DNA of 64,000 nt from Isosphaeraceae bacterium (GTDB lineage Bacteria > Planctomycetota > Planctomycetia > Isosphaerales > Isosphaeraceae): the NCBI GenBank assembly GCA_052146555.1, contig JBKQMU010000083.1:39316-103315 (forward strand), in the 5' to 3' direction. Positions 22,747-43,483 of the stretch are shown in pieces; the stretch's first letter is position 1; every line of letters starts with the position of its first letter. The notes under the pieces were generated by a model. It saw only the letters and a list, made by a program, of their open reading frames with translations, did not search any database and had not been told where the DNA came from. Both the position numbers and the translations under genes were made by a program.

Positions 22747-23649
22747 TTAGATCCGCGGTCCGCGGTCGCCGACGGGGAAAGCACCCCAGCCCAGCTTGTC
22801 GCGGAGGGTCCGATAGAAGCTGTGGCCGGGAAGGCGGACCATCGGGAAGTGGGTCTTGCCGCGGCGGATGACCACCCGGTCGCCGGCCTGGAGCGGGATC
22901 TGCACCTGACCGTCGATGACCAGCACCGCGGACGTGCCTTCGCCCCGAGAAACCATCTCGAACGTCTTATGCGCGCTGTCGACCAGCGGGCGCTGGGTCA
23001 GCGTGTGCGCGCAGATCGGCGTGACGACGAACATGTGCGCATTGGGCGGCAAGATCGGACCGCCGGCAGAGAGGCTGTGCGCGGTCGAGCCGACGGGCGT
23101 GGCGATGATCAGGCCGTCGCATCGATAGGTCATCACGCTCTCGCCGTCGATCGACAGGCCGATCTCGATCAAGTGAAACGTCGGTGACGCGCGGATGACG
23201 GCATCGTTCAGACCGCGGAAGGCGCGCATCGGACCGTTCTTGGGTATCAAGGTGCACGAGAGCGTCATCATGCTTTCGACCGTGAACCGCCGCTCGGACA
23301 GGTCGGTCAAGCGGTCGAAGAAGACTGCGGGGGTCAAGTCGGCGAGGAAGCCGAGCCGGCCGGCGTTGATGCCCAGAACGGGGGTCGGATGGTCGTCCAT
23401 CCGGCGGGCGGTGTGCAGCACGGTTCCGTCGCCGCCCAGCACGAGGGCGACATCCGCGGGGAGCTTGGCAAGGTCGGAATCGGCGGAGAGATCGATGCCC
23501 GCCAGGATCACGCCCGGTTTGCAGACGATGGTCACGGCCAGCCGCTCCGCCTCGGCGTGGACCTCTTCCCGCGTGCCGTTACCCAGAATCATCAAGCGCA
23601 AGGGCGGCCGCGGGGCAGACCGGTGGGGCGGCTGCGGCGAGTTCTCCAT
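22747..23649 (-). CDS. nadK: NAD kinase
   Basis: LGGDGT, GINAGRLGFL, LND, DGLIIATPVGSTAHSLSAGGPI. Confidence 0.97.
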   Translation of the reverse strand: MENSPQPPHRSAPRPPLRLMILGNGTREEVHAEAERLAVTIVCKPGVILAGIDLSADSDLAKLPADVALVLGGDGTVLHTARRMDDHPTPVLGINAGRLGFLADLTPAVFFDRLTDLSERRFTVESMMTLSCTLIPKNGPMRAFRGLNDAVIRASPTFHLIEIGLSIDGESVMTYRCDGLIIATPVGSTAHSLSAGGPILPPNAHMFVVTPICAHTLTQRPLVDSAHKTFEMVSRGEGTSAVLVIDGQVQIPLQAGDRVVIRRGKTHFPMVRLPGHSFYRTLRDKLGWGAFPVGDRGPRI

Positions 23650-23806
23650 GAGCTCAGAGGCCCTCCTCCAGAGTTTTGATCCAGGCGACCGTCCGGTGGA
23701 AACGACCGGCGCAGGCCAGACTCTATGACACCCGAAATGAGGGCATTCTGCCAGGCGGGATTAGCGGGGCCGTTTCATTCTCTGCAAGGGTCGCCACAGG
23801 CTGCCC

Positions 23807-23901
23807 CCCTCACCCGGCCTTCGGCCACCCTCTCCCGAAGGAGAGGGTATGAATCAACCTTCTCCCCCCGGGAGAAGGTGCCGCGCAGCGGCGGATGAGG
23901 G
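23807..23901. repeat. REP-like element, family B
   Basis: CCCTCACCCGGCCTTCGGCCACCCTCTCCC..GGAGAGGG and GGGAGAAGGTGCCGCGCAGCGGCGGATGAGGG. Confidence 0.8.
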
Positions 23902-23973
23902 GAGTCTACCGCCAGGATGAAACACCCCTGAACCCGGCTGCATCGCGATCGCATGACGACGGGCCGCTGCGTC

Positions 23974-24047
23974 GGGTGGCCGGGGCAGAATGCCCCGGGC
24001 CTTCGGCGACCGCCCCGGGGCGTCGCTGCGCTCCGACCCGGCCACCC
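23974..24047. repeat. REP-like element, family A
   Basis: GGGTGGCCGGGGCAGAATGCCCCGG...CCGGCCACCC. Confidence 0.75.
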
Positions 24048-24125
24048 AAATTCCCTGTGGTCTGGCCGCTGATCTGAAATCGCTTCTGCCGACCTGCCCA
24101 GCGTGGTGGAACAGGTCGTCCCGTG

Positions 24126-27100
24126 TCACTTCGAGGGAGACGGGGGGATCTCGTCACCGAAGCCGTACTTCACCCACTCGTCGAAGTTCTGTGGTTGACG
24201 CGAGTCGGCGATCAGGGCGAGCATCTCTCTGAGGTGGTGGGCGAAGTTCCGCATCGACCTATAGCGATCGAAGTCCTGCGTCGATACCCCTCGGGGATTG
24301 TTTCGCATCCGTTGGTCCTGCTTCCTTAACTCATCTTCCCAGTACCTGTCGCATTCGTCCCGCTCGCTCTGACCCATGATCTTGGCATCCGGCAGACAAA
24401 GGACCGCGATGCGGCGAAGAAACTCCTCAGCGACCATCTTGCTGTTCCGCCACACCTCAAAGAGCTCAAACATGCAGTTAGCCGATTCCAAATACTCTTT
24501 GCTCAAGATCACGAAGACTCGGTTTCCCGAACCGAGCCGTTGCATGAACCTGGAGAATCGATCGCCGAGGCCCACCCCAGTCCGATCGCGTAGGACGCTC
24601 TTACCTCGCCGGTCCGCCTCCTGACAGAGCCGATCTACCAGCGCCATGCTCTCCTTATTTTTCCAGCCGTAGGAGACGCAATACTCATCCGCGTTGGACG
24701 GCGGCGGGGTGAACTCTAGTTTTCGCTCGGGTGCAGCGTCTTCCCCTTCGGGCCACACGACGTGTCCCGGGCCAGATATCTTCGGGTGGGCCGGATGCAG
24801 CGCATCGGAAGTTCCCTTGGTTTCCGGCACCAAGCATCCGGACCGCTGGATCTCTTTCTCGATCCACTCTTGAAGCCGCCCAAGCAGCTCTACCTCCTGA
24901 CCGCCCCGGGCGGACACCGCGATCTGGCCGCTCCAGGTGTTGGGCTTGTCGCTTAGCCGTTGCTCGATGAGCGCATGGCTGCGGGTGGTCCGTTCATAGA
25001 GGCAGACGCCGTCCTTCCAGTACACGGCGCTGATTCCCGCCTCCTGGCCGAGCCGGCTGATGATGCCGCGCATGACGCCGGGGTGCAGGAAGGGGAGCTC
25101 CACCACCAGGTCCCCGCCCGGCTCATGCTCGCCCCACATCGCTTCGATCTCCGCCTCCACTAACCCCCGATCCGGCAGCAGATCGGGGGCGATGAATTCC
25201 GTCTCCAGCTTGCCCCCTTGATCTCCCTTCCGATGCACGAAGCAGATTCCGCACGATTTCATCATGCTGAGGAAAAGCTCCTGTTCCTCGATGCCGTAAT
25301 TGCTCCACACCCGCTCTTCAAGATCCTCGCGGATGAAGCGGCCCCTGGCCCGCTGCAACTGTCGGTAGCATTTCTCCCGATGAAAGACGGCATACACCGC
25401 CTCGAGCGCCCAGGACTGATCGAGCACGATACGGTCGTCGAACAGCCCCTTCTGGTAAAACACAATCCCCGTGTGGTGCAGATAGTCGAGAAGCAATTCG
25501 GGGCTGCTCACTCCCCCCGCTTCGGTACAGAGCTGGTGAAAGAAGTCCCAGGTCAGCCATCGGTATTTTCGCTCCTCCGCGGGGAGCGTCGCGTCACCGT
25601 CCCTCAAGGCCTCCAGCTTCCGCTTGACCTTCATGCGGCCTTTGCCGATCCGCGCCTGACCCATCGTCTCCCGCAGCCACAGGATCGCTTGCTGAAGAGC
25701 TTCGTTGAGCGCACCACGACCGCGGTCCTTCAAGGCGCTGTAATGCAGCACCTTGCGGAACTTAAAGTCCCCCAGCGTCTCATCCTCAACGGGCGGGCGC
25801 AGCTCCTCGTCCGTCGCCTGGTCGCACTGGTTTTGCACGATCAGCACCGGGCTGTTGACGCCGCTTAAGTGCCTCACGTATTCCAGCCAGTAGGCCAGCG
25901 GGTGGTTCTGGAAGGTCATGCCGCCGTGCTCGTACTCCCGCGCGTTCTCTGACTGGGGCGTCCAGACGAGGACGAAGATCGACTGCGTGCGCATGAAGAG
26001 CGCGTGGGTGCCGTGATAGAGATCCTGGCCGCCGAAGTCCCAGAGATGCAGGCGGGCCTCCTCGCCCGGGCCAGATGGAGGCCCTGCCTCCTCATGGCCT
26101 GGGTGGGAAGCCTCGATGGCCTGGGGCGGCATCGGCAACGGGGCGGAGGTCACCAGAATGCCGTGCGTGCTGTCCACGCTCGGATCGAACGCCTCCCCGC
26201 GGAGGCGGCGACAGATCTGCGTCTTGCCGATCCGCCCGTTCCCCAGCACCAGCACCTTCACGTCCGGCAGACGTTCCTCTCCGACCTCCAGATCACGCAA
26301 GTGTGCCCGGAGGCGTTCCAGGCAGTTCGCAGAGGCGTGTGGGGATAACACCTCTGCGGGAATGTCGGTGATGTGGGTATTGAAAAGAAAGAGCTGGACA
26401 AGTGATCCGAGCCAGACCAAAGACCCCGGCAGATCGCTCACCGGGGAATTGGAGCAGTTGAGCAATCCCAGCGCGCTCAAGGCGGCCAGTGGACCCAGAT
26501 CGCTCACCTGGGTGTTGGAGCAGTGGAGCAACCGCAGCGAGCTCAAGCCTGCCAGCGGACCCAGATCGCTCACCGGGGTCCCGGAGCAGTCGAGCGATTG
26601 CAGCGCGCTCAAGCCGGCCAGTGGACCCAGATCGCTCACCTGGGTGTTGGAGCAGTGGAGCAATTGCAGCGCGCTCAATCCGGTCAGTGGACCCAGATCG
26701 CTCACCGGGGTGGCGGAGCAGTTGAGCGATCGCAGCGTGCTCAAGCTTGCCAGTGGACCCAGATCGCTCACCTGGGTCATGGAGCAGTCGAGCGACCGCA
26801 GCGAGCTCAAGCCGGCCAGTGGACCCAGATCGCTCACCGGGGTATTGAAGCAGCTGAGCGCTTGCAGCGAGCTCAAGCCTGCCAGCGGACCCAGATCGCT
26901 CACCGGGGTAGAGGAGCAGCGGAACGATCGCAGCGCACTCAAGCCGGTCAGTGGTCCCAGATCGCTCACCTGGGTCCCGGAGCAGTCGACCGCTTGCAGC
27001 GCGCTCAAGCCCGCCAGCGGGCTTAGATCGCAGATGTCGGTTTCGCAGACTGACAGGAGCCTCAGTCCGGGAAAACGCTGAAGGTGGATGAGCTGGTGAG

Positions 27101-27323
27101 CGTCCTGATTCGGATCCAGGTCCGAAGCGGCGTCATGCCACTTTCCCTGCTCATCCCGCCAGGCGCTTCCCAGGTTCAGGCCCCAGAGATGCTCCAGCTC
27201 GAACAGCTCCTCCGGCAGTTCCGTCAGCCCAAGTCGGCCAAGGTCGAGGAAGCCGGTGCGTTTTTCCTTCGCTTCCGCGATGCGTTCGCGGGCGATGGCG
27301 AGGCCTTCAGGGTCGGAGGGCAT
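24126..27323 (-). CDS. LRR-Roc-COR-TIR protein
   Basis: About 11 LRRs; Roc GTPase (GNGRIGKT, STHGI, WDFGGQ); COR region; C-terminal TIR-like domain (YCVSYGW...VFVILSKEYLESANCMFEL). Confidence 0.9.
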   Translation of the reverse strand: MPSDPEGLAIARERIAEAKEKRTGFLDLGRLGLTELPEELFELEHLWGLNLGSAWRDEQGKWHDAASDLDPNQDAHQLIHLQRFPGLRLLSVCETDICDLSPLAGLSALQAVDCSGTQVSDLGPLTGLSALRSFRCSSTPVSDLGPLAGLSSLQALSCFNTPVSDLGPLAGLSSLRSLDCSMTQVSDLGPLASLSTLRSLNCSATPVSDLGPLTGLSALQLLHCSNTQVSDLGPLAGLSALQSLDCSGTPVSDLGPLAGLSSLRLLHCSNTQVSDLGPLAALSALGLLNCSNSPVSDLPGSLVWLGSLVQLFLFNTHITDIPAEVLSPHASANCLERLRAHLRDLEVGEERLPDVKVLVLGNGRIGKTQICRRLRGEAFDPSVDSTHGILVTSAPLPMPPQAIEASHPGHEEAGPPSGPGEEARLHLWDFGGQDLYHGTHALFMRTQSIFVLVWTPQSENAREYEHGGMTFQNHPLAYWLEYVRHLSGVNSPVLIVQNQCDQATDEELRPPVEDETLGDFKFRKVLHYSALKDRGRGALNEALQQAILWLRETMGQARIGKGRMKVKRKLEALRDGDATLPAEERKYRWLTWDFFHQLCTEAGGVSSPELLLDYLHHTGIVFYQKGLFDDRIVLDQSWALEAVYAVFHREKCYRQLQRARGRFIREDLEERVWSNYGIEEQELFLSMMKSCGICFVHRKGDQGGKLETEFIAPDLLPDRGLVEAEIEAMWGEHEPGGDLVVELPFLHPGVMRGIISRLGQEAGISAVYWKDGVCLYERTTRSHALIEQRLSDKPNTWSGQIAVSARGGQEVELLGRLQEWIEKEIQRSGCLVPETKGTSDALHPAHPKISGPGHVVWPEGEDAAPERKLEFTPPPSNADEYCVSYGWKNKESMALVDRLCQEADRRGKSVLRDRTGVGLGDRFSRFMQRLGSGNRVFVILSKEYLESANCMFELFEVWRNSKMVAEEFLRRIAVLCLPDAKIMGQSERDECDRYWEDELRKQDQRMRNNPRGVSTQDFDRYRSMRNFAHHLREMLALIADSRQPQNFDEWVKYGFGDEIPPSPSK
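26415..27074 (-). repeat. 66-bp tandem array (10 units) encoding 22-aa LRRs
   Basis: AGATCGC recurs every 66 bp; consensus LSALQSLDCSGTPVSDLGPLAG. Confidence 0.95.
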
Positions 27324-27474
27324 GGGTCAGCGCGATGATCCAACAGGGCCAGTACACAAGAGCAAGCGACGCCAGCGCTATTGTCTCACAGTTGGCGCTG
27401 TTCTCAAAGGTGCCGTTCATCCATCGGCCATGATGTGAGACCCTCTTCGGCGCATGTCCCCCGAAGCCGCCGTT

Positions 27475-27608
27475 TGCCTGACCGCAGGTCTCCCCCTGGG
27501 TACCAGGGCCGTCGCTGACGCTTCCGGCTCTGACGATGACTCCCGCCGGGGCCGTGGTTGCAGACCTCCGGTCGGCGGCGTGGCAACGTCAGGAGACCTG
27601 GCCACAAC
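27475..27608. repeat. REP-like palindromic element, family D
   Basis: Inverted AGGTCTCC / GGAGACCT plus GACCGCAGGTC / GACCTCCGGTC modules; intergenic upstream of the LRR gene. Confidence 0.4.
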
Positions 27609-27905
27609 AGAGAGCCTCTGCGGCAGGTCGCCACCAACCGGTCAAAGCCAGCAGATCTGATGAAACCGAGCGTCATGTCGTAAAATAAGAATAGAGGCGG
27701 CGCGCTCGTTCCACGCGGCCAGAACAGCCGGCCGAGGTTCGATCCGCGCGCCGGACCGACGGGCTTGTCACCTCAGCTCGACCAAGGACCGGGCAATGTC
27801 CCCAAATGTCACACTTCCAGCGAAAATATTGCCGGAAAAATATAAGCAAAGGTAATATTAGTGCCCCGGACGCAGGCGCAACTCGAACATAGATATGTCG
27901 ATCCG

Positions 27906-28095
27906 CCTCATCCGGCCTTCAGCCACCTTCTCCCAATGGGAGAAGGAAAGACGATACCCTCTCCCTCCGGGAGAAGGTGCCGCGCAGCGGCGGATGAGGG
28001 CGCGTCTGGGGCAAGTCGATCCCCCTCATCGGGCCTTCGGCCTCCTTCTCCCAATGGGAGAAGGAAAGACGATACCTTCTCCCCCCGGGCAAGAG
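27906..28095. repeat. REP-like cluster, family B (two units) right after dxs
   Basis: CCTTCTCCCAATGGGAGAAGGAAAGACGATACC occurs twice. Confidence 0.85.
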
Positions 28096-28122
28096 ACTCG
28101 CGCCAGGTTGCAGCCCGTGTCC

Positions 28123-30096
28123 TTACTTGAGCACCGCGGCGGGGGTCGAGCCAGTGCCTCGGCCGTTCTTGCCGTTACTCTCGGTCTGGGTGGCAAGCAG
28201 GCCGACGGACCGGGCCATTCCGATAGCCGAGGCGATGATCCCCTCGACGTCCAGCCCGACCTCGGCGAGCTGCTCGTCGTGCTCGGCGTGGAACACGAAC
28301 CGGTCGGGCAGGCCCAGCCGGCGAACGTGCCCGGCGGCGATGCCGGCGTCGCTGGCCGCTTCCAGCACGGCCGACCCGAAGCCGCCGGCCAAGCAGCCCT
28401 CCTCCACCGTCAGCACGAACGCGGCTTCCTCGATGGCTTTGCAGACCGTCGCTCGATCCAGCGGCTTGGCGAAGCGGGCGTTGATCACCCCCACGCGCAG
28501 GCCGTGCCGCTCACGAAGCTGTTCGGCGGCCCGCACGCAGGTGCCCAGAAGCGCCCCGCAGACGATGATCATGCCGTCGGTCTCCCACTCCAGGACCTCG
28601 GCCTGTCCCAGCTCGATGGGCTGGAAATGCCGCTCGATCGCCTCCAGACTGGCGCGGGGATAACGGATCGCCGTCGGCGAGGTATGCCCAAGGGCGAATT
28701 CGATCATGGGGTCGACGTCGTACTCATCGCCGGGGGCCATCACCACCATGTTGGGGAAGACTCGCATGTAGGCCAGGTCGTAGCTGCCGTGATGCGTCGG
28801 CCCGTCGGCGCCCACCAGCCCGCCCCGGTCCAGGCAAAACACGACCGGCAAATCTTGAAGCGCCACTTCCTGGAAGATCTGGTCGTAGGAGCGCTGGAGG
28901 AACGTGCTGTAAATGTCGACCACCGGCCTGGCGCCCGCCTTGGCCATGCCCGCCGCGAAGGCGACGGCGTGGCTCTCGCAGATGCCGACGTCGAAGAACT
29001 GGCCGGGGAAGACGTCGCGAATCTTGTGGAGCTTGTTGCCCTCGCACATGGCCGCCGTGAGGATCGCCACCTTGGGGTCCCGGCGGCAGGCCTCGAAGAG
29101 CGCGGCACTGACCGCGTCGGTGTACGTCCGGTAGGAGATCGACTTGAGCGGGATGATCCCGTTTTCCGCCTTCCGAAACGGCGCGGGCGCATGAAACTTC
29201 ACGGGGTCCTTAACCGCCGGCTCGAAGCCGTGCCCCTTGTTGGTCAGGACGTGCAGGAGGATCGGCCCGTCCATCGCCTTGACGCGCTCGAGATAACTCC
29301 GCAGGCCCTTGAGGTCGTGGCCGTCGATCGGACCCAGATACGTAAGGCCCAGCTCCTCGAAGAGCATCCCGTGATGGAGCGAGGCCTTGATGGCGTCCTT
29401 GAATTGCTGGAACCAGCGCTCGGCGTGCTCGCCGACCACGGGAATGGTGGGCAAAACCGACTTGAGGCGCTTGTTCCAGTCGAGGTAGGTCGTGGACATC
29501 CGCGCGCTGTCGAGATAGTTAGCCAGCCCGCCGACGCGGGGGCAGATCGACATCTTGTTGTCGTTGAGGATAACCAGGAGCGGGGTCTTCAGTCCGCTGG
29601 CGTGGTTGAAGGCTTCAAAGACGATGCCCGAGGGCAGGGCACCGTCGCCGATGACGGCCACCGAGTGCCGGTTGGGCTTGCCGGTGAGCTGGTCGCCGAC
29701 CTTCAGCCCCATCGCGGTGGACGGCGCGCAGCCGGCATGGCCGGTCATGAACAGGTCGAAGGGGCTCTCGGCCGGGTTGGGATAGCCCATCAGGCCGGCT
29801 TTGGTGCGGATCGTGTGCAAGAGCCCTGCGCGGCCGGTGATGAGCTTGTGCGGATAGATCTGATGGCCTGTGTCCCAGATCAGGCGGTCGTGCGTGAAAT
29901 CGAACGTCAGGTGCAAAGCCAGGCAAAGCTCGACCACCCCGAGGTTGCTGGCGAAGTGCGCCGACCGGCGGCCGACCACGCCGATCAGCGCGTTGCGCAT
30001 CTCGGCGGCGAGCTGATCGAGGTCTTTATCGGAGAGCTTCTTCAAGTCGGCCGGCGACTGGATCCGAGCCAGCAAGGCATCCGCACTAATCATCAA
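28123..30096 (-). CDS. dxs: 1-deoxy-D-xylulose-5-phosphate synthase
   Basis: WDTGHQIYPHK, GDGAL...ILNDNKMSI, DVGICESHAV, DGPTHHG. Confidence 0.98.
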   Translation of the reverse strand: MMISADALLARIQSPADLKKLSDKDLDQLAAEMRNALIGVVGRRSAHFASNLGVVELCLALHLTFDFTHDRLIWDTGHQIYPHKLITGRAGLLHTIRTKAGLMGYPNPAESPFDLFMTGHAGCAPSTAMGLKVGDQLTGKPNRHSVAVIGDGALPSGIVFEAFNHASGLKTPLLVILNDNKMSICPRVGGLANYLDSARMSTTYLDWNKRLKSVLPTIPVVGEHAERWFQQFKDAIKASLHHGMLFEELGLTYLGPIDGHDLKGLRSYLERVKAMDGPILLHVLTNKGHGFEPAVKDPVKFHAPAPFRKAENGIIPLKSISYRTYTDAVSAALFEACRRDPKVAILTAAMCEGNKLHKIRDVFPGQFFDVGICESHAVAFAAGMAKAGARPVVDIYSTFLQRSYDQIFQEVALQDLPVVFCLDRGGLVGADGPTHHGSYDLAYMRVFPNMVVMAPGDEYDVDPMIEFALGHTSPTAIRYPRASLEAIERHFQPIELGQAEVLEWETDGMIIVCGALLGTCVRAAEQLRERHGLRVGVINARFAKPLDRATVCKAIEEAAFVLTVEEGCLAGGFGSAVLEAASDAGIAAGHVRRLGLPDRFVFHAEHDEQLAEVGLDVEGIIASAIGMARSVGLLATQTESNGKNGRGTGSTPAAVLK

Positions 30097-31034
30097 CGAT
30101 CCCTTTCCAAGAGTGCCAGCGCCAGCTCGCGCAGGCGGAATCCGTTCGAGCCTAGAGACGCCAGGGCTAGGGTGGCCTCGTCGGCAAGCTGCTGGGCCCG
30201 GAAGCGGCTTCCATCAATGCCCAGGAACCTCGGGTATGTCCATTTGCCTAGACCGGAATCCTTGCCGACGCGCTTGCCAACTTTGGCTTCATCACCCTGG
30301 ACGTCCAGGAGATCGTCGACGATCTGAAAGGCCAAGCCGACGGCTCGCCCATAGCGGTCCAGAGCATCCATGTGTGCCTGAGGGGCTCCGGCAATCACGG
30401 CTCCCATCTGCAAAGGAGCGCGGAGCAGAGCGCCGGTCTTACGGCGGTGAATGGCTTCGAGCTTCTCCAGCGACCCTGAGTCCTGCTCGCTGGCGGCGAG
30501 CTTTTCAGCCTGGAGGTCGGCCATCTGGCCCCCGACCATGCCGGCGGGCCCCGCCGCTTCCGCCAGGATCCGGACACACTGGAGGGCCGAGGCGTCGGGC
30601 TCGACCGACCGGGCGACCAGCTCGAAGGCCAGCGTCAGTAGAGCGTCCCCCGCGAGGATCGCCGTGGCCTCGCCAAAGGCCCTATGGCAGGTCGGCCGGC
30701 CCCGCCGCAGATCGTCGTTGTCCATCGCCGGCAGGTCGTCGTGAATGAGCGAGTACGTGTGCACCATTTCAATCGCACAAGCAGCGCCCAACGCTCCGCT
30801 GGCGTCGCCACCGCACGCCTCGGCGGACATCAGGCACAGAACCGGCCGCAATCGCTTCCCACCCCCCAGCACGCTGTAACGCATGGCTGCGGCCAAGTGG
30901 GCCGGCGTCGCCGCCCCGCAGTCCAGGTCAACCTCCGGCAACCATCGATCCAGAGCATCATCCACCCGTTGGCGGGCCTGCTCCAGATATTCTTGTAGCG
31001 GAGCTTCAACGGATATTGGCAGGCAAGTCGTCAT
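30093..31034 (-). CDS. ispA: Polyprenyl (farnesyl) diphosphate synthase
   Basis: GGKRLRP, SLIHDDLPAMDNDDLRRG, KTGAL, FQIVDDLLD; 4-nt overlap with dxs. Confidence 0.96.
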   Translation of the reverse strand: MTTCLPISVEAPLQEYLEQARQRVDDALDRWLPEVDLDCGAATPAHLAAAMRYSVLGGGKRLRPVLCLMSAEACGGDASGALGAACAIEMVHTYSLIHDDLPAMDNDDLRRGRPTCHRAFGEATAILAGDALLTLAFELVARSVEPDASALQCVRILAEAAGPAGMVGGQMADLQAEKLAASEQDSGSLEKLEAIHRRKTGALLRAPLQMGAVIAGAPQAHMDALDRYGRAVGLAFQIVDDLLDVQGDEAKVGKRVGKDSGLGKWTYPRFLGIDGSRFRAQQLADEATLALASLGSNGFRLRELALALLERDR

Positions 31035-39368: not shown

Positions 39369-39535
39369 CCACGCTGCCCTCCGTGCACAGATCTCGCAAA
39401 CATTTTCGGGCATTTCCATGGCCATCAAATGTCTTTCGGCCTTATCATAGCGAGGAGGAAATTTTCAGGTCTGAACCAGGTCGAGTGAATACCCAGAACG
39501 GCCTGATTCTATCCCGGTCTCACGGCGAGCGCCCC

Positions 39536-42500
39536 ATGAGCATCGAACTCAGCCTCGAGTTCCCGGATCAGAGCAACGTCATCGTCTCCTACGGGAACGT
39601 CAAATCGGGCGCGCTCGACTTCAAGAACCCACTCACCGCCCAGGACCGCAAAGAGCTCCGCTGGTACCTGGAAGTCTATGGAGCGCACTCGCTTGGCGAT
39701 CCGGACGACCAGGAAGCGAAGCGCATCGCTGCCAAGCTGGAGACCTGGGGCGAGGCACTGTTCAACGCCGTGTTTGGTGATCGCGCGGCGCAACGCCCTT
39801 TCAACGCCTTCCAGGATGCCGGTGACAAGGCTCGCCTGCTCACCATCAATGCCGAGTCGCCGGCCATTCTCGGGCTCCCCTGGGAGCTGCTCTGCGACCC
39901 GGGGCGTGGCGGGGCGTTCCTGTTCAACGAGCACCCGCGAATCAGCATCCGCCGCGGCGTGAGCGGCGCAACCGGTGGCCGCACCCCGTTTGTGGTCAAG
40001 TCCAAGGAGCGGCTGCACATGCTTTTCATCGTCAGCCGGCCCGAGGATGTCCCCTTTCTCGACCCGCGGGCCGATCCCGCCCCTGTGCTCGACGCGCTGG
40101 AGACGCACGCTCCGGGCCGGGTCACGTGGGAGTTCCTCCGCCCCCCGACGCTCGATGCGCTCGTGACGCGGATCGATGACAGGCGAAAGCAAGCGGTGGA
40201 TATCCTCCACTTCGACGGCCACGGTGTGTTCGATACCGACGGCGGCCTGCCGGAGCGGCTGAGCAACCGCACGGTGAATATCGCGCAGGTCCTTTCCGGC
40301 CAGATGCGGAAGGACCTGATCGTGGAGGCTTCCGCCAAGTCGCCGCCGAACATTGGCTATCTGCTGTTTGAAAAGGCGGACGGCCAGCCGGACCTGGTCT
40401 CGTCGGAGAAGCTCGGCTTCAACCTGCACCGCCGGAACGTGCCCTTGGTCATCCTCTCGGCTTGCCAGAGCGCAGCGCAGGGGGACAACGAGGAGCCGCT
40501 GGGCAGCGTGGCCGCGCGACTCACCGCCGCCGGCATCCCCGCCGTGCTGGCCATGACGCACTCCGTGCTCGTGCACACCACGCGGGCCCTCTTCGGCGAG
40601 TTCTACGCCCAGCTCGCCGGCCACCGGGCCATCGGCGAGGCGCTCGACGCTGCCCGCCTCCATCTCCTCAATCACCCGGAGAAATACAAAGTCCAGCGCG
40701 GCCCGGACCGCGTGCCGCTGCGGCTCTACGACTGGTTCGTGCCGTCCTTGTACCAGGCCGGGGCCGATGTGCCGCTCATCCGGGAGGCGAAAGGCAAGAA
40801 GCGGGTATCCGGCGCTGCGCTGGTCGAGCCGCGCTCCAATGTCCCCGCCCGTCCCGAAGCCGGCTTCTTCGGGCGGAAACGCGAGCTGTGGGACATCGAA
40901 CGCTGGTTTATGGGCAAGGCCCGCCGCATTACCATCACCGGTTTCGGCGGACAGGGGAAAACAGGGCTGGCCCTGGAGGCCGCGCGCTGGCTCACTCGGA
41001 CGAAAATGTTCGAGGCAGCGGTGTTCGTGGACTATTCTCGGGTGCAGGCGGCAGACGCGTTATCAGTGGCCGTGAGCAACATCGGCAGCGTGCTGGGTCA
41101 GAGTGTCATCGACGCCAACGCCGCACGCGAGGCGCTCCAGCAGACCCCCACGCTGGTGGTCCTGGACAACCTCGAAGCCGTGGCCGCGGTGCCCTTGCGC
41201 GAGCTGCTCGACGCCGCCAAGGGCTGGTTCGAGGCCGGCCCGTCCCGCGTGCTCCTCACCACCCGCACGCCGGATTTCGGCCACCCGGACTATCGGGTCG
41301 AGGGCACGCTCATTCATCGGCGGATCGTGCTGGACGGACTGGGGAATAAAGAGGCGTCGGATGATGCGCTGGAGTGGTTCGCCGAGCTGTCCAAGCTCCC
41401 GCCGGCGCCGACGCTGCCCACGCCAACGCGCGAGGCGCTCATCGATCTGTTCGACAAGGTGCGGTTCCACCCACTCTCCATCCGTACGCTGGCGGCGCAG
41501 CTCAAGACTTGGCGTCCGGCCGAGCTAGGCGATCGGCTGGGGCAGTTGCTCGCCGGCAGCGCGAGCGGATCGCCCACGGCGAGATCGACCGAGGCCACGC
41601 TCCCCGAGCTGGTCGCCTCACTCAAGCTCTCGCTCGACCGGCTGGACGCCGCCGCCCGACAGGTGCTGCCCCGGCTCGGCGTTTTCCAGGGCGGGGCGTT
41701 CGAGACGGAACTACTGGCCATCACGGGCCTGGAAGATGCGGAAGGGGGCGGAACGAACGTCTGGCCCGACCTGCGCCGGCAGCTCGAAGCTGCGGCCTTG
41801 ATCGAGGCGGAGACGGTGCCGGGCGTGAAGCCGCCGTTCCTGAGGTTCCATCCCACGCTGGCCCCGATGCTCTGGGAGCAGCTTGGCCCCGACGAGCGCG
41901 CCCGACTCACCACCGCTCACCGGCAGGGGTATTATGAGCTCGCCAGCGGCTTGAACTTCGCAGACGACAAGAACCCGCACGAAACACGCGCCATTGCGTC
42001 GCGGGAACTGCCCAACCTGCTCCATGCCGCTGATGCCGCCTTTGATGCCCACGATCCCGACGCCGTGAGCTTCGCGGACAGCCTCACCAAGTTCCTCAAC
42101 GTCTTCGGCCTCAAGCGAGATGCCGAGCGCCTCACCGCCCGGGCGCAGGCCGCATCCGGTGACGAGGGCTCGCCTGCCTGGTACCTGGCCCAGTCGCAGC
42201 GCGGCGAGCAGTTGTGGGCCTCCGGCCAGGCGACCGAGGCGGCCCAGGTCTTCGAGGCCATCCTTTCGCGTCTCGGCGACGCCCCCAGCTACGAGCGTGC
42301 GGTAACGCTGGACAGATTCGGCCGGTGCTTCAGGGCCGGCGGACGGCTGGACCTGGCGGCGGCGCGCTACCGGGAAGGCCTTGAGGTGACTGAGAAGCTG
42401 GAGCAGAGCGATTGGGTGAAAGGTCTGACGTACTCGTTGCACACTGATCTCGCGGACGTGCTGTGCGATCGGGGGCAATACGCCGAAGCGCGGCAGGAAT

Positions 42501-43483
42501 ACGAAACAGGACTCAGGATCGCGGAGGAACTCGGGAACTTGCGTAACCAGGGCGTGACTCTCGGCCAGCTTGGCACGCTGGCCATGCGGGAAGGCAAGCT
42601 TGAGGAAGCACAGGCGCGCCACCGGGCCGCGCTCGCGCTGTTCCAGCAGCTCCGCGAACCGGCCATGGAGGCCGTCGTCTGGCATCTGCTCGGCTTGGTC
42701 TATCAGAAAGCCATGCAATGGGACGAGGCCGAGTGGCACTACCGAGAGGCAGCACGGATCCAAGGGGAAAGGGGCAACATCACCGGCGCCGCCCAGACCT
42801 GGAACCAGTTGGCCAACATCAGCAAGGCAGCCGGCAAGCCGAAAGCGGCGGAGGACTGGTGTCGCAAGGCGATTGAGGCTCGCCGGAAGATCGAAGAGCC
42901 CAAAGAACTAGCACTTTACCTTAACAACCTCGCCAACCTCCTGCAAACCCAACCGGATCGGCTGGCCGAGGCCCGCCAACTGGCCGAGGAGGCGCTGGCG
43001 CTCAAGAAGACCCTCGATCCCGGTGCGGCGGAAATCTGGAAGACGTACGGCATTCTCGCGGAGATTGCGGACAGGGAGGCCGGACTCACGACGAACACCC
43101 GCCGGCAGGCAGAACTCCAAGCGGAGGCGCGGGAACACCGCCGTCTCGCCCGCGAGGCTTTACGCAACTTCCCCGGCGCGCGGCAGGAGCTGCAGGGGCT
43201 CCTGCCGCTGATCGACGCGACCTTGATGGCCGTCCAGGACTCCGCACAACAAGAGAATCCCGATGCCATTCTGAAGGTCTACAGCGATGCCGGCTGGAAC
43301 AAGATCGTCGATGCGGTGCGCCGCATCGTTGGCGGCGAGCGCGACCCAGTTGCTCTCGGTTTGGACTCCGACCTCGATCCCGGAAGCTCGCTGATCGTCG
43401 GAATCATCCTCGCCGCCCTGTCCAACCCCTTCACGCTCTCGGACCTTCTCCCGCCGAATGACGGTCCCAAAGTGGCGAGCTGA
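39536..43483 (+). CDS. CHAT (caspase-like) protease - STAND/NB-ARC-like ATPase - TPR protein
   Basis: LPWELL, ILHFDGHG and VILSACQS (His/Cys dyad); GFGGQGKT Walker A; LVVLDNLE Walker B; about 7 TPRs. ATG 39536 preferred. Confidence 0.9.
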   Translation: MSIELSLEFPDQSNVIVSYGNVKSGALDFKNPLTAQDRKELRWYLEVYGAHSLGDPDDQEAKRIAAKLETWGEALFNAVFGDRAAQRPFNAFQDAGDKARLLTINAESPAILGLPWELLCDPGRGGAFLFNEHPRISIRRGVSGATGGRTPFVVKSKERLHMLFIVSRPEDVPFLDPRADPAPVLDALETHAPGRVTWEFLRPPTLDALVTRIDDRRKQAVDILHFDGHGVFDTDGGLPERLSNRTVNIAQVLSGQMRKDLIVEASAKSPPNIGYLLFEKADGQPDLVSSEKLGFNLHRRNVPLVILSACQSAAQGDNEEPLGSVAARLTAAGIPAVLAMTHSVLVHTTRALFGEFYAQLAGHRAIGEALDAARLHLLNHPEKYKVQRGPDRVPLRLYDWFVPSLYQAGADVPLIREAKGKKRVSGAALVEPRSNVPARPEAGFFGRKRELWDIERWFMGKARRITITGFGGQGKTGLALEAARWLTRTKMFEAAVFVDYSRVQAADALSVAVSNIGSVLGQSVIDANAAREALQQTPTLVVLDNLEAVAAVPLRELLDAAKGWFEAGPSRVLLTTRTPDFGHPDYRVEGTLIHRRIVLDGLGNKEASDDALEWFAELSKLPPAPTLPTPTREALIDLFDKVRFHPLSIRTLAAQLKTWRPAELGDRLGQLLAGSASGSPTARSTEATLPELVASLKLSLDRLDAAARQVLPRLGVFQGGAFETELLAITGLEDAEGGGTNVWPDLRRQLEAAALIEAETVPGVKPPFLRFHPTLAPMLWEQLGPDERARLTTAHRQGYYELASGLNFADDKNPHETRAIASRELPNLLHAADAAFDAHDPDAVSFADSLTKFLNVFGLKRDAERLTARAQAASGDEGSPAWYLAQSQRGEQLWASGQATEAAQVFEAILSRLGDAPSYERAVTLDRFGRCFRAGGRLDLAAARYREGLEVTEKLEQSDWVKGLTYSLHTDLADVLCDRGQYAEARQEYETGLRIAEELGNLRNQGVTLGQLGTLAMREGKLEEAQARHRAALALFQQLREPAMEAVVWHLLGLVYQKAMQWDEAEWHYREAARIQGERGNITGAAQTWNQLANISKAAGKPKAAEDWCRKAIEARRKIEEPKELALYLNNLANLLQTQPDRLAEARQLAEEALALKKTLDPGAAEIWKTYGILAEIADREAGLTTNTRRQAELQAEAREHRRLAREALRNFPGARQELQGLLPLIDATLMAVQDSAQQENPDAILKVYSDAGWNKIVDAVRRIVGGERDPVALGLDSDLDPGSSLIVGIILAALSNPFTLSDLLPPNDGPKVAS

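Follow-up and report, generated by a model that had tools for sequence, protein, structure and literature searches.

The 64,000-nucleotide stretch of Isosphaeraceae DNA analysed here (the window) contains a gene for a 1065-residue protein, the N-terminal domain of which is an array of leucine-rich repeats (LRRs) that evolves in concert. Replacement changes are in excess at a few groove-facing positions of its 22-residue unit, and the remaining scaffold is highly uniform. The LRR domain is followed by Roc, COR and TIR domains, and the array is probably the ligand-binding arc of a Roco-TIR immune-type sensor that has been diversified by recombination together with selection.

The repeat array and its variable positions

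The array is encoded on the minus strand in units of 22 amino acids (66 nt), which are described here in the register L1-x-x-L4-x-C6-x-x-T9-x-V11-S-D-L14-G-P-L17-A-G-L20-S-x. In this register the units start at residues 87, 109, 131 and so on to 285 and 307 (27065 down to 26340; Table 1), and TRF detects a period of 66 with 9.1 copies and 83% matches. The original prediction, made from the letters of the DNA, was of an LRR array with a conserved scaffold and hypervariable sites, and this is what is found, with ten units in which variation is concentrated at positions 3, 5, 7 and 8. The motif VSDLGPL, which had been read as invariant in units 2-9, is carried without variation by all eight units of residues 109-284, and an invariant 15-mer is also common to the same eight units. 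The further claim that the scaffold DNA is frozen down to its synonymous sites holds for CCCAGATCGCTCACC, which occurs exactly eight times at a spacing of 66 nt (chance expectation 0), but not throughout, as GGA/GGT, CCA/CCG, GCA/GCC/ACC and AGT/AGC vary.

The mean pairwise identity of the core units is 85% at the nucleotide level and 73% at the amino-acid level (176 residues), with a scaffold nucleotide identity of 92%. Identity from unit to unit spans 77-95%, and the combination of variable codons is unique to each unit except for the pair at residues 219/263. The constant segment of each 66-bp unit comprises codons 11-22 together with codon 1, and within codons 2-10 the groove-facing positions 3, 5, 7 and 8 alternate with the structural residues L4, C6 and T9. 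The cap-like first unit also opens the arrays of three relative loci (L003, L004 and L008). The N-terminal 86 residues, which are 83-92% identical to those of the closest relatives, are modelled by AlphaFold2 as a helix (residues 5-21) and short strands.

The four unit positions 3, 5, 7 and 8 account for 2.68 of a total amino-acid diversity of 5.86. As much diversity was captured by 439 of 100,000 random draws of four of the 22 positions, and the concentration of variation at these sites therefore exceeds chance. The residues at position 5 (D,R,S,D,N,H,D,H,N) and position 8 (G,S,N,M,A,N,G,N,N), numbered 8 and 11 in the original prediction, match those listed there exactly, and those at position 3 (A,S,A,S,S,L,S,L,L; formerly position 6) had been given as A/S/L. 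In the AlphaFold2 model, in which the LRR domain has a pLDDT of 91-97, the beta-strand occupies unit positions 3-5 in all units. The variation falls on the x of LxxLxC(L)xxT(N), at sites that, as anticipated, belong to the concave surface; they are the same sites as in the brown-algal LRR-ROCO proteins.

Table 1. Positions in the window of the repeat units, protein domains, sequence motifs and flanking repeats.
Feature	Position	Strand	Basis or remark
Dispersed palindromic repeat, ~100 nt, nadK-side edge of insert	23805..23901	.	REP/MITE-like
Whole gene, 1065-aa LRR-Roc-COR-TIR protein	24126..27323	-	ORF; Pfam LRR_4, Roc, COR-A, COR-B (marginal), TIR_2
C-terminal TIR domain, aa 866-1065	24129..24728	-	Pfam core aa 883-960
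Codon of catalytic-type Glu953	24465-24467	-	
COR-A (aa 578-716) and COR-B (aa 739-828)	24840..25592	-	Pfam and structural similarity to CtRoco, LRRK2
Roc GTPase domain, aa 356-510	25794..26258	-	Pfam Roc 64.9 bits, cut-off 27
Roc motif QNQCD	25821-25835	-	
Roc motif DFGGQ	26025-26039	-	
P-loop GNGRIGKT	26220-26243	-	
C-terminal cap repeat, aa 307-328	26340..26405	-	...FNTHITDIPAEVLSP; family-conserved
LRR array, ten 22-residue leucine-rich repeats	26406-27065	-	
Ninth unit, aa 285-306	26406..26471	-	First half regular (LGLLNCSNSPVSDL), second half diverged
Eight core 22-aa LRR units, aa 109-284	26472..26999	-	VSDLGPL scaffold with hypervariable positions 3, 5, 7, 8
Degenerate first unit, aa 87-108	27000..27065	-	LRLLSVCETDICDLSPLAGLSA
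N-terminal helix and cap repeats, aa 1-86	27066..27323	-	Family-conserved
Two further copies of the dispersed repeat, dxs-side edge of insert	27897..28089	.	

Selection, concerted evolution and turnover of units

In the window array, diversity at the first and second positions of codons 3, 5, 7 and 8 is 0.473, and that at four-fold silent scaffold sites is 0.097; the corresponding pN at the four sites is 0.447 versus a pS of 0.000 at the interleaved codons 1, 4, 6, 9 and 11. In the comparison of concave with silent sites, on which the original prediction had staked itself beforehand, replacement diversity thus greatly exceeds silent diversity, both here and in 59 of 64 related arrays. Site by site across units and homologues (64 arrays), pN/pS, a crude p-distance ratio in which pS is lowered by codon bias (GC3 about 0.8), is 2.38 (interval 2.05-2.81) at position 8, 1.52 (1.29-1.82) at position 5 and 1.34 (1.10-1.65) at position 7, in keeping with what had been expected of the binding face. 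The ratio is 1.17 (0.98-1.37) at position 3 and 1.01 at position 21, and no unit position besides 8, 5 and 7 has an interval above 1 in these 64 arrays. Tree-based methods make assumptions that are broken by recombination among the units. Over the family as a whole, the four sites have a pN that exceeds the interleaved pS by a factor of 2.05 (1.71-2.57) and the pN of exposed positions away from the concave face by a factor of 2.17. The codons found at position 5 across the family are mostly single-step neighbours of GAC/AAC (encoding D, N, Y, H, V and S), as expected of ordinary point mutation.

At silent scaffold sites, units of one array diverge by 0.228 and those of different arrays by 0.632 (64 arrays), and this lower divergence within arrays indicates concerted evolution. 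Together with pairs of alleles in relatives that differ in the array alone, it agrees with the homogenisation of repeats, with gain and loss of units, that had been proposed. Unit positions 15, 18, 21 and 22 are uniform inside an array and different among arrays, and for the window array pS is 0.123 internally as against 0.21-0.25 to its closest relatives. An arrangement of 'ancient cassettes', in which an old variable segment persists and only the scaffold is homogenised, was rejected, as silent sites in the codons that alternate with the variable ones are no less uniform than the scaffold; the variable segment is therefore not older than the scaffold.

A separate observation concerns the closest relatives, between the arrays of which the silent divergence of the scaffold is 0.04-0.06, as compared with 0.15-0.22 in the remaining gene. 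This low value is a hint either of selection for identical DNA or of arrays being exchanged from lineage to lineage.

The number of scored units per array ranges from 1 to 27 among 118 homologues, and where relatives have near-identical alleles, these are set apart only by unit number and by the residues at hypervariable sites. The genes P0002 and P0126 have no nucleotide differences outside the array (2490 nt), and their arrays are one unit and one position-8 residue apart. Where P0125 and P0002 overlap, one position-7 residue is all that separates them, the start of P0125 being called 7 residues upstream of that of P0002. The arrays of P0128 and P0130 are three units apart, with 1 nucleotide difference in the remaining sequence, although in short-read metagenome assemblies a difference in unit number can arise from collapse of repeat loops by the assembler, with which this last pair is compatible. 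The P0002 sequence is identical on 8 contigs, and the four that were fetched come from four different JGI samples. The window gene is the sole member of its own 90% cluster and a metagenome scan found no closer alleles of it (none above 79% identity); its own array is known from one sequence, and array polymorphism is accordingly a feature seen in its relatives.

Domain architecture and genomic setting

The central part of the protein consists of a Roc GTPase domain followed directly by COR, the latter with Pfam scores of 71.9 bits for COR-A (cut-off 35.3) and 26.8 bits for COR-B, marginally under its cut-off of 27. The G motifs of the Roc domain are intact, and residues G361, N362, G363, G366-T368, D429-Q433, Q497 and C500 are invariant in 26 homologues, which places the protein among the Roco proteins. 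Pfam gives no NACHT or NB-ARC match and the central module is Roc-COR, so that the protein falls outside the STAND NLRs; it may nevertheless work in an NLR-like manner.

The C-terminal domain scores 30.5 bits with Pfam TIR_2 (cut-off 28). A search of the PDB with the single sequence of this domain returned only a weak SEFIR match (E 0.05), and a family profile is thus needed to reach TIR domains; this profile matches the TIR domains of Roq1, L6 and RUN1 with E values of 3.5e-9 to 9e-8. Its alignment sets CMxEL opposite WCLxEL, such that Glu953 (CMFEL) corresponds to the glutamate of WCLEEL in Roq1 and WCLMEL in L6. The glutamate of the (W)CxxEL motif is catalytic in plant TIR domains. The model of the domain has a pLDDT of 91 and its best fold matches are the plant TNL TIR domains of RUN1, RPS4 and Roq1, with TM scores of 0.5-0.6. 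Glu953 is invariant in 26 and in 57 homologues, which argues for an enzymatic TIR domain; judged by alignment and model, it appears to have both the fold and the catalytic-type glutamate of NADase-type TIR domains. A signal-peptide-like hydrophobic stretch is not apparent when the N-terminal sequence is read by eye, without a tool, and the protein is predicted to be a cytoplasmic, single-chain bacterial Roco protein (AP-GTPase) of the putative counter-invader class.

The gene occupies a 4.4-kb insert between dxs and nadK, two genes that are adjacent in 7 of 9 congeners. Among 13 congeners the gene has a single intact full-length homologue (52% identical), with a second congener carrying it in fragments, and the family is spread over at least 581 species of many phyla. 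The copies in relatives are located at other loci, beside integrase, resolvase or toxin-antitoxin genes. The neighbours of the window gene are the housekeeping genes tilS, a methyltransferase gene, nadK, dxs and ispA. No defence island was found around it, PADLOC returning only a weak bSEFIR match (E 0.0011), and there are no Rfam families or tRNAs nearby. An open reading frame of 83 codons lies downstream of the gene in L003, L004, L214 and L215, with a shorter 67-residue form in L216, but a search of the window and seven other loci did not find it, and it is hence not a conserved partner gene. In the relative locus L008 the repeats are split over two reading frames, an arrangement suggestive of an indel within the array.

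The nadK-side copy of the dispersed repeat forms the direct-repeat families D3/D4 with 27903-28000. Flanking direct repeats were considered as a signature of insertion and rejected, since they are members of a dispersed family matched 80 times in the genome, both strands counted, and are not specific to the insert.

Related systems, alternative explanations and significance

In the proposed mechanism, the near-identical constant segments would recombine homologously, through unequal crossing-over, slippage or conversion, and so keep the scaffold uniform within a lineage, and the same recombination between units would add, delete and reorder them. Ordinary point mutations at the four groove codons would be retained by diversifying selection, allowing the binding surface to outpace silent sites, and diversification would take place in the germline and at the level of populations rather than by a somatic programme. 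A foreign molecule, most plausibly a phage protein, may bind to the concave face and thereby lift the autoinhibition that the LRR domain is presumed to exert on the Roc-COR switch, with a change in nucleotide and oligomeric state. The TIR domains would then be brought together, and Glu953-dependent cleavage of NAD+ would abort the infection. The accessory and patchy distribution of the family is the one indirect support for such anti-invader action, and no experiments on any member of this protein class were found in the literature searched.

Prokaryotic AP-GTPase (Roc)-COR 'counter-invader' proteins have been predicted computationally by Kaur, Iyer, Burroughs and Aravind (eLife 2021; PMC8195603), with 'rapidly evolving' N-terminal LRRs, AP-GTPase/Roc, COR and a C-terminal effector, TIR being among at least 24 effector domains. 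The window protein shares this architecture exactly, in its domain set as well as in its fast-evolving LRRs. That study is a computational catalogue without per-site LRR analysis, concerted evolution, unit-number alleles or experiment; the present work adds per-site LRR values, concerted evolution and unit-number alleles for the subfamily with 22-residue LRRs and a TIR domain. The best sequence match of the window protein is CtRoco of Chlorobium tepidum (PDB 6HLU, 8R4B, 5IL7), with an E value of 2e-94 to 6hlu/8r4b, and 6hlu is also the best match to the LRR-Roc-COR fold (E 5e-41, TM 0.52/0.60). The two LRR domains superpose with an rmsd of 1.6 A over 283 columns at 35% identity. CtRoco is a model for LRRK2 in which the LRR acts in a nucleotide-dependent monomer-dimer cycle, but its solved construct (6HLU) is LRR-Roc-COR alone, without a TIR domain.

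The brown-algal LRR-ROCO proteins (Zambounis et al. 2012; PMC11378527) have the LRR-Roc-COR order in common with the window protein. They contain four positively selected concave sites per repeat, and the repeats are shuffled as modules (PMC11378527). The spacing of these sites is 2, 2, 1 in both systems (14, 16, 18 and 19 in the algae; 3, 5, 7 and 8 here). Each algal LRR corresponds to one exon, with shuffling and alternative splicing via introns, and the effector domains differ from those of the window protein, whereas the window repeats are contiguous 66-bp units of a bacterial open reading frame and shuffling must therefore use homologous recombination. The suggested likeness to fungal NLR repeats is apt. 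Fungal repeats with high internal conservation, such as the WD40 repeats of HET-E/HET-D and the ANK and TPR repeats (Paoletti 2007; Chevanne 2010; Dyrka 2014, PMC4986451), follow the same regime of near-identical units, number polymorphism, concerted evolution and a few positively selected surface sites, all of which are found here, the polymorphism in relatives only. At 73% identity the window array lies below the threshold of Dyrka et al. 2014 (>85% amino-acid identity over >=100 residues), which is reached by 8 of the 64 family arrays; with four to five variable sites per 22-residue unit, identity has a ceiling near 80%. The fungal systems differ from the window protein in using WD40, ANK or TPR repeats but never LRRs, and in carrying them on STAND ATPases (NACHT or NB-ARC) rather than Roc-COR; their mechanism may also involve RIP.

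The plant TIR-NB-LRR proteins Roq1, RPP1, L6 and RUN1 offer an analogy, in that an LRR sensor, a nucleotide switch and a TIR NADase would be combined by a similar logic, and the window TIR domain is nearest to theirs in profile and fold, with the catalytic glutamate aligned. The switch of the window protein is, however, a Ras-like Roc-COR GTPase rather than an NB-ARC STAND ATPase, the domains run in the opposite order, from an N-terminal LRR to a C-terminal TIR, and the LRRs are of the 22-residue bacterial/internalin class. This class is shared with the Listeria internalins InlA and InlH (PDB matches to InlA, E about 1e-48). The internalins are surface adhesins, whereas the window protein is a presumably cytoplasmic multidomain protein with no signal peptide or wall anchor seen, and the NCBIfam internalin models give 135 and 126 bits, where cut-offs of 1050 and 1600 apply respectively, well short of Class 1 internalins. 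The VLRs of lamprey and hagfish arise by somatic assembly, in which a cytidine-deaminase-dependent copy-choice process draws on hundreds of flanking donor cassettes. They share with the window array the LRR, diversity on the concave face and a constant scaffold, but the likeness to VLRs that had been suggested goes no further, as the array DNA is present only once in the genome, close LRR paralogues are lacking, a genome-wide DNA search found no donor cassettes, the window gene is complete, and there is no sign of somatic assembly.

The same pattern might have a neutral history, in which recent tandem duplication left unconstrained groove positions among otherwise homogenised units, with neither diversifying selection nor change of specificity. 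The units are indeed young relative to the family (within-array pS 0.12-0.23), homogenisation lowers scaffold pS and thereby inflates pN/pS, and the ratios at positions 3 and 21 are near 1. Relaxed constraint predicts a ratio of about 1, though, and not the 2.4 and 1.5 of positions 8 and 5, with intervals that exclude 1; moreover, the silent sites at L4, C6 and T9 are as frozen as the scaffold (pS 0 here, 0.19 in the family), exposed non-concave positions have half the pN of concave ones, and near-identical alleles differ exactly at positions 7 and 8, all of which makes a neutral history rather improbable. Mis-assembly of the array or of its unit number is a very remote prospect, even though the metagenome-derived genome is in 365 contigs, short-read assemblers collapse or expand such repeats, and the L008 repeats lie in two frames. 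The reading frame is open through all units with both flanking caps intact, most junctions are unique by unit identity and, apart from residues 219/263, by codon combination, and the same organisation is found in hundreds of independent assemblies, including those of the isolates Paludisphaera soli and Labrys okinawensis.

Programmed diversification, whether by a diversity-generating retroelement (DGR) with a template repeat or by VLR-like copying from silent donor cassettes, would account for a variation that is limited to few codons and that includes multi-nucleotide differences beside invariant neighbours, and the genome does encode reverse transcriptases. There are three such genes, all on other contigs, and a template/variable repeat pair, a nearby reverse transcriptase and adenine-specific changes were not found, the substitutions being of all types. 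The array DNA has no second copy in the 6.68-Mb assembly (92% complete, such that a donor could sit on a missing contig), the sole other LRR match is 39% identical over ~110 residues, and P0002 does not vary between the contigs on which it occurs, so that rewriting of the four codons by such a system is highly improbable. A different role for the LRR, as the regulatory or partner-binding module of a housekeeping or social signalling Roco protein (in kin recognition or allorecognition between cells, like the het genes of fungi, or in the binding of a variable self protein, with the TIR domain as scaffold or signal generator), is unlikely but has more to be said for it. The CtRoco LRR regulates the Roc-COR cycle intramolecularly (6hlu, 8r4b) and has no known role as a pathogen sensor, the neighbouring genes are housekeeping genes with no defence genes adjoining, fungal repeats under the same evolutionary regime serve allorecognition (PMC4986451), and Planctomycetes have a complex cell biology. 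Against this stand the patchy, horizontal distribution, with the insert absent in 7 of 9 congeners and relatives' loci beside mobile-element and toxin-antitoxin genes (integrase, resolvase), the invariant catalytic-type glutamate, which favours an enzymatic TIR domain, and the diversifying selection on the binding face, which an arms race explains better than a housekeeping partner does.

The reading of the array as the binding arc of an immune-type sensor has consequences beyond this gene. Genes labelled 'internalin A' that have this pattern would be cytoplasmic Roco-TIR proteins, and the repeat number of Roco-TIR arrays is unreliable in short-read assemblies. The four hypervariable positions form a compact paratope on a rigid, readily modelled scaffold. 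If immune sensing is indeed their role, these proteins show that the STAND ATPase of NLRs can be replaced by a Ras-like GTPase, the LRRK2-type Roc-COR switch, and that bacteria diversify an LRR binding face under the same population-genetic regime as fungi and brown algae. More tentatively, the bacterial Roco-TIR proteins of many phyla might carry self-renewing receptor arrays, in which a 40-nt constant segment is kept identical because this permits homologous recombination to duplicate, delete and reshuffle units, the groove codons give specificity and populations hold allelic series that differ in the array only. Should that be true, the natural allele pairs P0002/P0126 and P0128/P0130/P0131 would be suited to tests of specificity, and the family would do with LRRs in prokaryotes what repeat diversification does in fungal NLRs and exon shuffling does in brown-algal ROCO genes.

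Architecture of the protein and its tandem array

The Roco-TIR gene encodes its LRR array within a single ORF of 1065 amino acids. Pfam matches are to LRR_4, Roc, COR-A, COR-B (marginal) and TIR_2, and the closest solved structures are those of the Chlorobium tepidum Roco protein (CtRoco; 6hlu, 8r4b, E 2e-94), with internalin A also among the best solved relatives of the LRR part alone. An AlphaFold2 model (mean pLDDT 82, LRR 91-97) has CtRoco LRR-Roc-COR as its best fold match (E 5e-41, TM 0.52/0.60), followed by LRRK1 and LRRK2. A profile of the C-terminal domain, built from 57 sequences, matches the plant TIR domains of Roq1, L6 and RUN1 (E 3.5e-9 to 9e-8) and pairs a family-invariant C-M-x-E-L with W-C-L-x-E-L of the plant proteins; modelled separately (pLDDT 91), this domain has its nearest likeness in plant TNL TIRs. 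Homologues share an invariant P-loop, DFGGQ and Glu953, and from their sequences switch and effector therefore both look functional. No hydrophobic stretch resembling a signal peptide was seen when the N-terminus was read by eye. The Roc-COR-TIR part is also fast-evolving: against the closest relatives, L003, L004 and L008, window 24129-26363 has 74-75% amino-acid identity at a silent-site distance of just 0.26-0.33, and hence a pN/pS of about 0.5.

Tandem Repeats Finder assigns the array a period of 66 nt, 9.1 copies and 83% matches. The units are described here in the register L1-x-x-L4-x-C6-x-x-T9-x-V11-S-D-L14-G-P-L17-A-G-L20-S-x. The 15-mer CCCAGATCGCTCACC occurs in exactly eight copies at 66-nt spacing, with 0 expected by chance, and VSDLGPL is invariant across all eight regular units, as originally observed. 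To call this scaffold frozen, synonymous sites included, was nonetheless a slight overstatement, since some silent sites vary (GGA/GGT, CCA/CCG, GCA/GCC). The internal identity of the array (85% at the nucleotide level) is middling for the family, in which 28 of 64 arrays reach at least 85%.

The residue series previously listed for three variable positions, then numbered 8, 11 and 6, are correct and correspond to positions 5, 8 and 3 of the present register. Together, positions 3, 5, 7 and 8 account for 2.68 of the array's summed amino-acid diversity of 5.86, a share equalled in 0.4% of draws of four random positions. The β-strand of an LRR lines the concave face, with L4 and C6 facing the core and x3, x5, x7 and x8 exposed on or beside the groove. 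Every unit of the model has a three-residue β-strand at positions 3-5 (E111-113, E133-135 and so on to E287-289), and these modelled strands, taken with the established geometry, would place the variable x sites on the concave face, as had been proposed. Four positively selected concave sites of brown-algal LRR-ROCO proteins (PMC11378527) have the same spacing, 2, 2, 1, as positions 3, 5, 7 and 8.

Groove codons and turnover of units

In the window array, the first and second positions of codons 3, 5, 7 and 8 have a diversity of 0.473, compared with 0.097 at the four-fold silent sites of the scaffold; pN is 0.447 for the four concave codons and pS is 0.000 for the interleaved conserved codons (1, 4, 6, 9 and 11). 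The analysis covered the DNA of 64 family arrays, comprising the window, five loci from close relatives and same-family genomes, and another 58 from named genomes. Concave variation was expected to exceed silent variation, and in 59 of the 64 arrays the diversity of the four codons is indeed greater than that of the four-fold sites. Dividing the pooled pN of each position by the overall pS, from p-distances that ignore codon bias and recombination, gives 2.38 at unit position 8 (bootstrap 95% interval 2.05-2.81), 1.52 at position 5 (1.29-1.82), 1.34 at position 7 (1.10-1.65), 1.17 at position 3 (0.98-1.37), 1.01 at position 21 (0.82-1.24) and values below 1 at every other position. The interleaved-silent-site control rules out a model in which the variable segments are old cassettes and homogenisation affects the scaffold alone.

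In a set of 118 homologous proteins, each array is uniform at positions 15, 18, 21 and 22, where arrays differ from one another, and positions 8, 5 and 7 have the lowest within-array conservation. Scaffold silent divergence is 0.228 within and 0.632 between the 64 arrays; for the window array it is 0.123 within and 0.21-0.25 against the closest relatives. No unit-by-unit orthology was found with these relatives, and some of their scaffolds are nearly identical in nucleotides, differing only at codons 5, 7, 8 and 10. The scored unit count of the 118 homologues runs from 1 to 27, the counts being uncertain where assemblies are short-read.

Between the L003, L004 and L008 arrays, scaffold silent divergence is 0.04-0.06 versus 0.15-0.22 elsewhere in the same genes, which plain concerted evolution does not predict; arrays may have been exchanged, DNA identity may be under selection, or codon bias may be at work. 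The L008 array, of about 25 units, lies between integrase and resolvase genes on a contig that, to guess from its name, is probably a long-read assembly; it is split over two frames (ORFs of 536 and 869 aa, overlapping by 4 nt) by either an indel error or a genuine frameshift.

Alleles were compared inside 90%-identity clusters of relatives from short-read metagenome assemblies. The genes of the homologues P0002 and P0126 have 0 nucleotide differences over 2490 nt outside the array and 1.2 kb of flanks, and their arrays differ by one unit and by Glu/Gly at position 8. The sole difference between P0125 and P0002, over the length common to both, is Ser/Cys at position 7; the called start of P0125 lies 7 residues further upstream. 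Relative to P0128, the arrays of P0131 and P0130 are longer by 2 and 3 units, and outside the array P0128 and P0130 differ at a single nucleotide. No second allele of the window gene was present in the collections searched.

Genomic setting and distribution

The gene stands alone between nadK and dxs-ispA, in a 4.4-kb lineage-specific insert at the dxs/nadK junction. In 7 of 9 congeners ispA, dxs and nadK are contiguous with a spacer of 150-320 nt, and a spacer of this ancestral type is still present on the nadK side of the insert. In another congener (G008) this junction is occupied by a different insert, of 3.9 kb, that includes a YTV-domain protein, and in one further congener dxs was not found in the 10-kb stretch beside nadK. 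Copies of a palindromic dispersed repeat of about 100 nt, with a core like CCTTCTCCC-NNN-GGGAGAAGG, lie at the insert edges; it looks like a REP/MITE-type element and, with 80 BLAST matches genome-wide (both strands counted), is not specific to this site.

Of 13 congeners, just 1 has a full-length, intact homologue, and one more has a fragmented copy. The most similar congener copy, in G006 (pieces 79-87% identical), lies at the start of a contig and is broken into several frames, with TGA and TAG stops, which points either to pseudogene decay or to faulty assembly; it belongs to another locus, since the dxs-nadK junction of G006 is empty. Genes of relatives occupy other loci, adjoining integrase, resolvase or toxin-antitoxin genes. 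Across Planctomycetota, Verrucomicrobiota, Pseudomonadota, Cyanobacteriota, Nitrospirota and Acidobacteriota, at least 581 species genomes contain the family. Such a distribution is that of an accessory gene that moves horizontally.

One subclade has a conserved 83-aa ORF directly downstream of the Roco-TIR gene; it has no Pfam match in the precomputed list and is missing from the window and seven other loci searched. The window also contains a large ORF of 1366 aa, 12 kb from the gene, and an 810-aa ORF antisense to dxs with a low GC3 of 0.66 (0.79-0.83 in the Roco-TIR gene and the other long window ORFs), almost certainly a shadow ORF of GC-rich dxs and no real gene.

Coordinates of the array, its gene, the surrounding insert and related loci
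Feature	Location	Strand or orientation
Roco-TIR ORF	window 24126-27323	minus
Degenerate first unit	starts aa 87	minus
Eight regular units	aa 109-284	minus
Half-regular ninth unit	starts aa 285	minus
Cap unit	starts aa 307	minus
nadK	window 22747-23649	
dxs-ispA	window 28123-31034	
Lineage-specific insert	window 23650-28122	
Palindromic repeat copies	window 23805-23901, 27897-28000, 28015-28089	
1366-aa ORF	window 39383-43483	
810-aa ORF	window 27895-30327	plus
Insert of congener G008	L127 1980-5916	
Broken congener copy	G006:C62:85-2672 (L011)	
Split array of a relative	L008 6394-10610	
83-aa ORF	L004 4064-4315, L003 3880-4131, L215 5424-5675	convergent to Roco-TIR gene

A proposed germline-diversified sensor and its alternatives

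The protein is most economically read as a cytoplasmic LRR sensor, the binding face of which diversifies in the germline. The units would be homogenised and reshuffled by recombination within their constant parts, and selection would keep replacements at the four groove positions. By analogy with CtRoco/LRRK2 and TIR enzymes, ligand binding to the LRR may then switch Roc-COR, leading to TIR clustering and a predicted cleavage of NAD+.

Neutral relaxed constraint on the groove positions appears improbable beside a four-site pN that, over the 64 arrays, exceeds the interleaved-codon pS by a factor of 2.05 and the pN of exposed positions off the concave face by a factor of 2.17. Mis-assembly of the array is very unlikely. 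In the alleles of relatives, loop collapse could mimic the P0128/P0130 unit difference, but the point differences at hypervariable sites are beyond what it could mimic. Programmed mutagenesis was considered against the 6.68-Mb assembly (92% complete), in which no second copy of the array DNA was found. The single further LRR match to the protein in this genome shares 39% identity across about 110 residues, and the reverse transcriptases are all on contigs other than that of the array. Substitutions are of all types, those at position 5 being mostly single-step neighbours of GAC/AAC, and P0002 is identical on 8 contigs, four of which were fetched, each from a different JGI sample. Judged on a 92%-complete assembly, there is thus no support for a programmed process of VLR or DGR type, and such mutagenesis is given hardly any weight. 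A non-immune or allorecognition role, which sequence data do not separate from immunity, is unlikely though worth some consideration. Literature searches turned up no experiments on a part played by Roco proteins in defence against phages.

Of the two analogies in the original prediction, that with VLRs is not supported and that with fungal NLR repeats stands, as the evolutionary regime of fungal NLR repeats with high internal conservation matches that of the array (PMC4986451; bioRxiv 10.1101/2020.01.06.895854). Brown-algal ROCO genes match this regime as well. For bacteria, high internal conservation has been noted for WD and TPR repeats only, and prokaryotic NLRs are stated to be without LRRs (bioRxiv 10.1101/2020.01.06.895854). 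Kaur et al. (PMC8195603) describe AP-GTPase-COR proteins in which rapidly evolving LRRs make up the N-terminus and TIR is one of the C-terminal effectors. The window gene is clearly a new member of this known, predicted kind; the present additions are a per-site quantification across the family, the control with interleaved silent sites, and the pairs of alleles.
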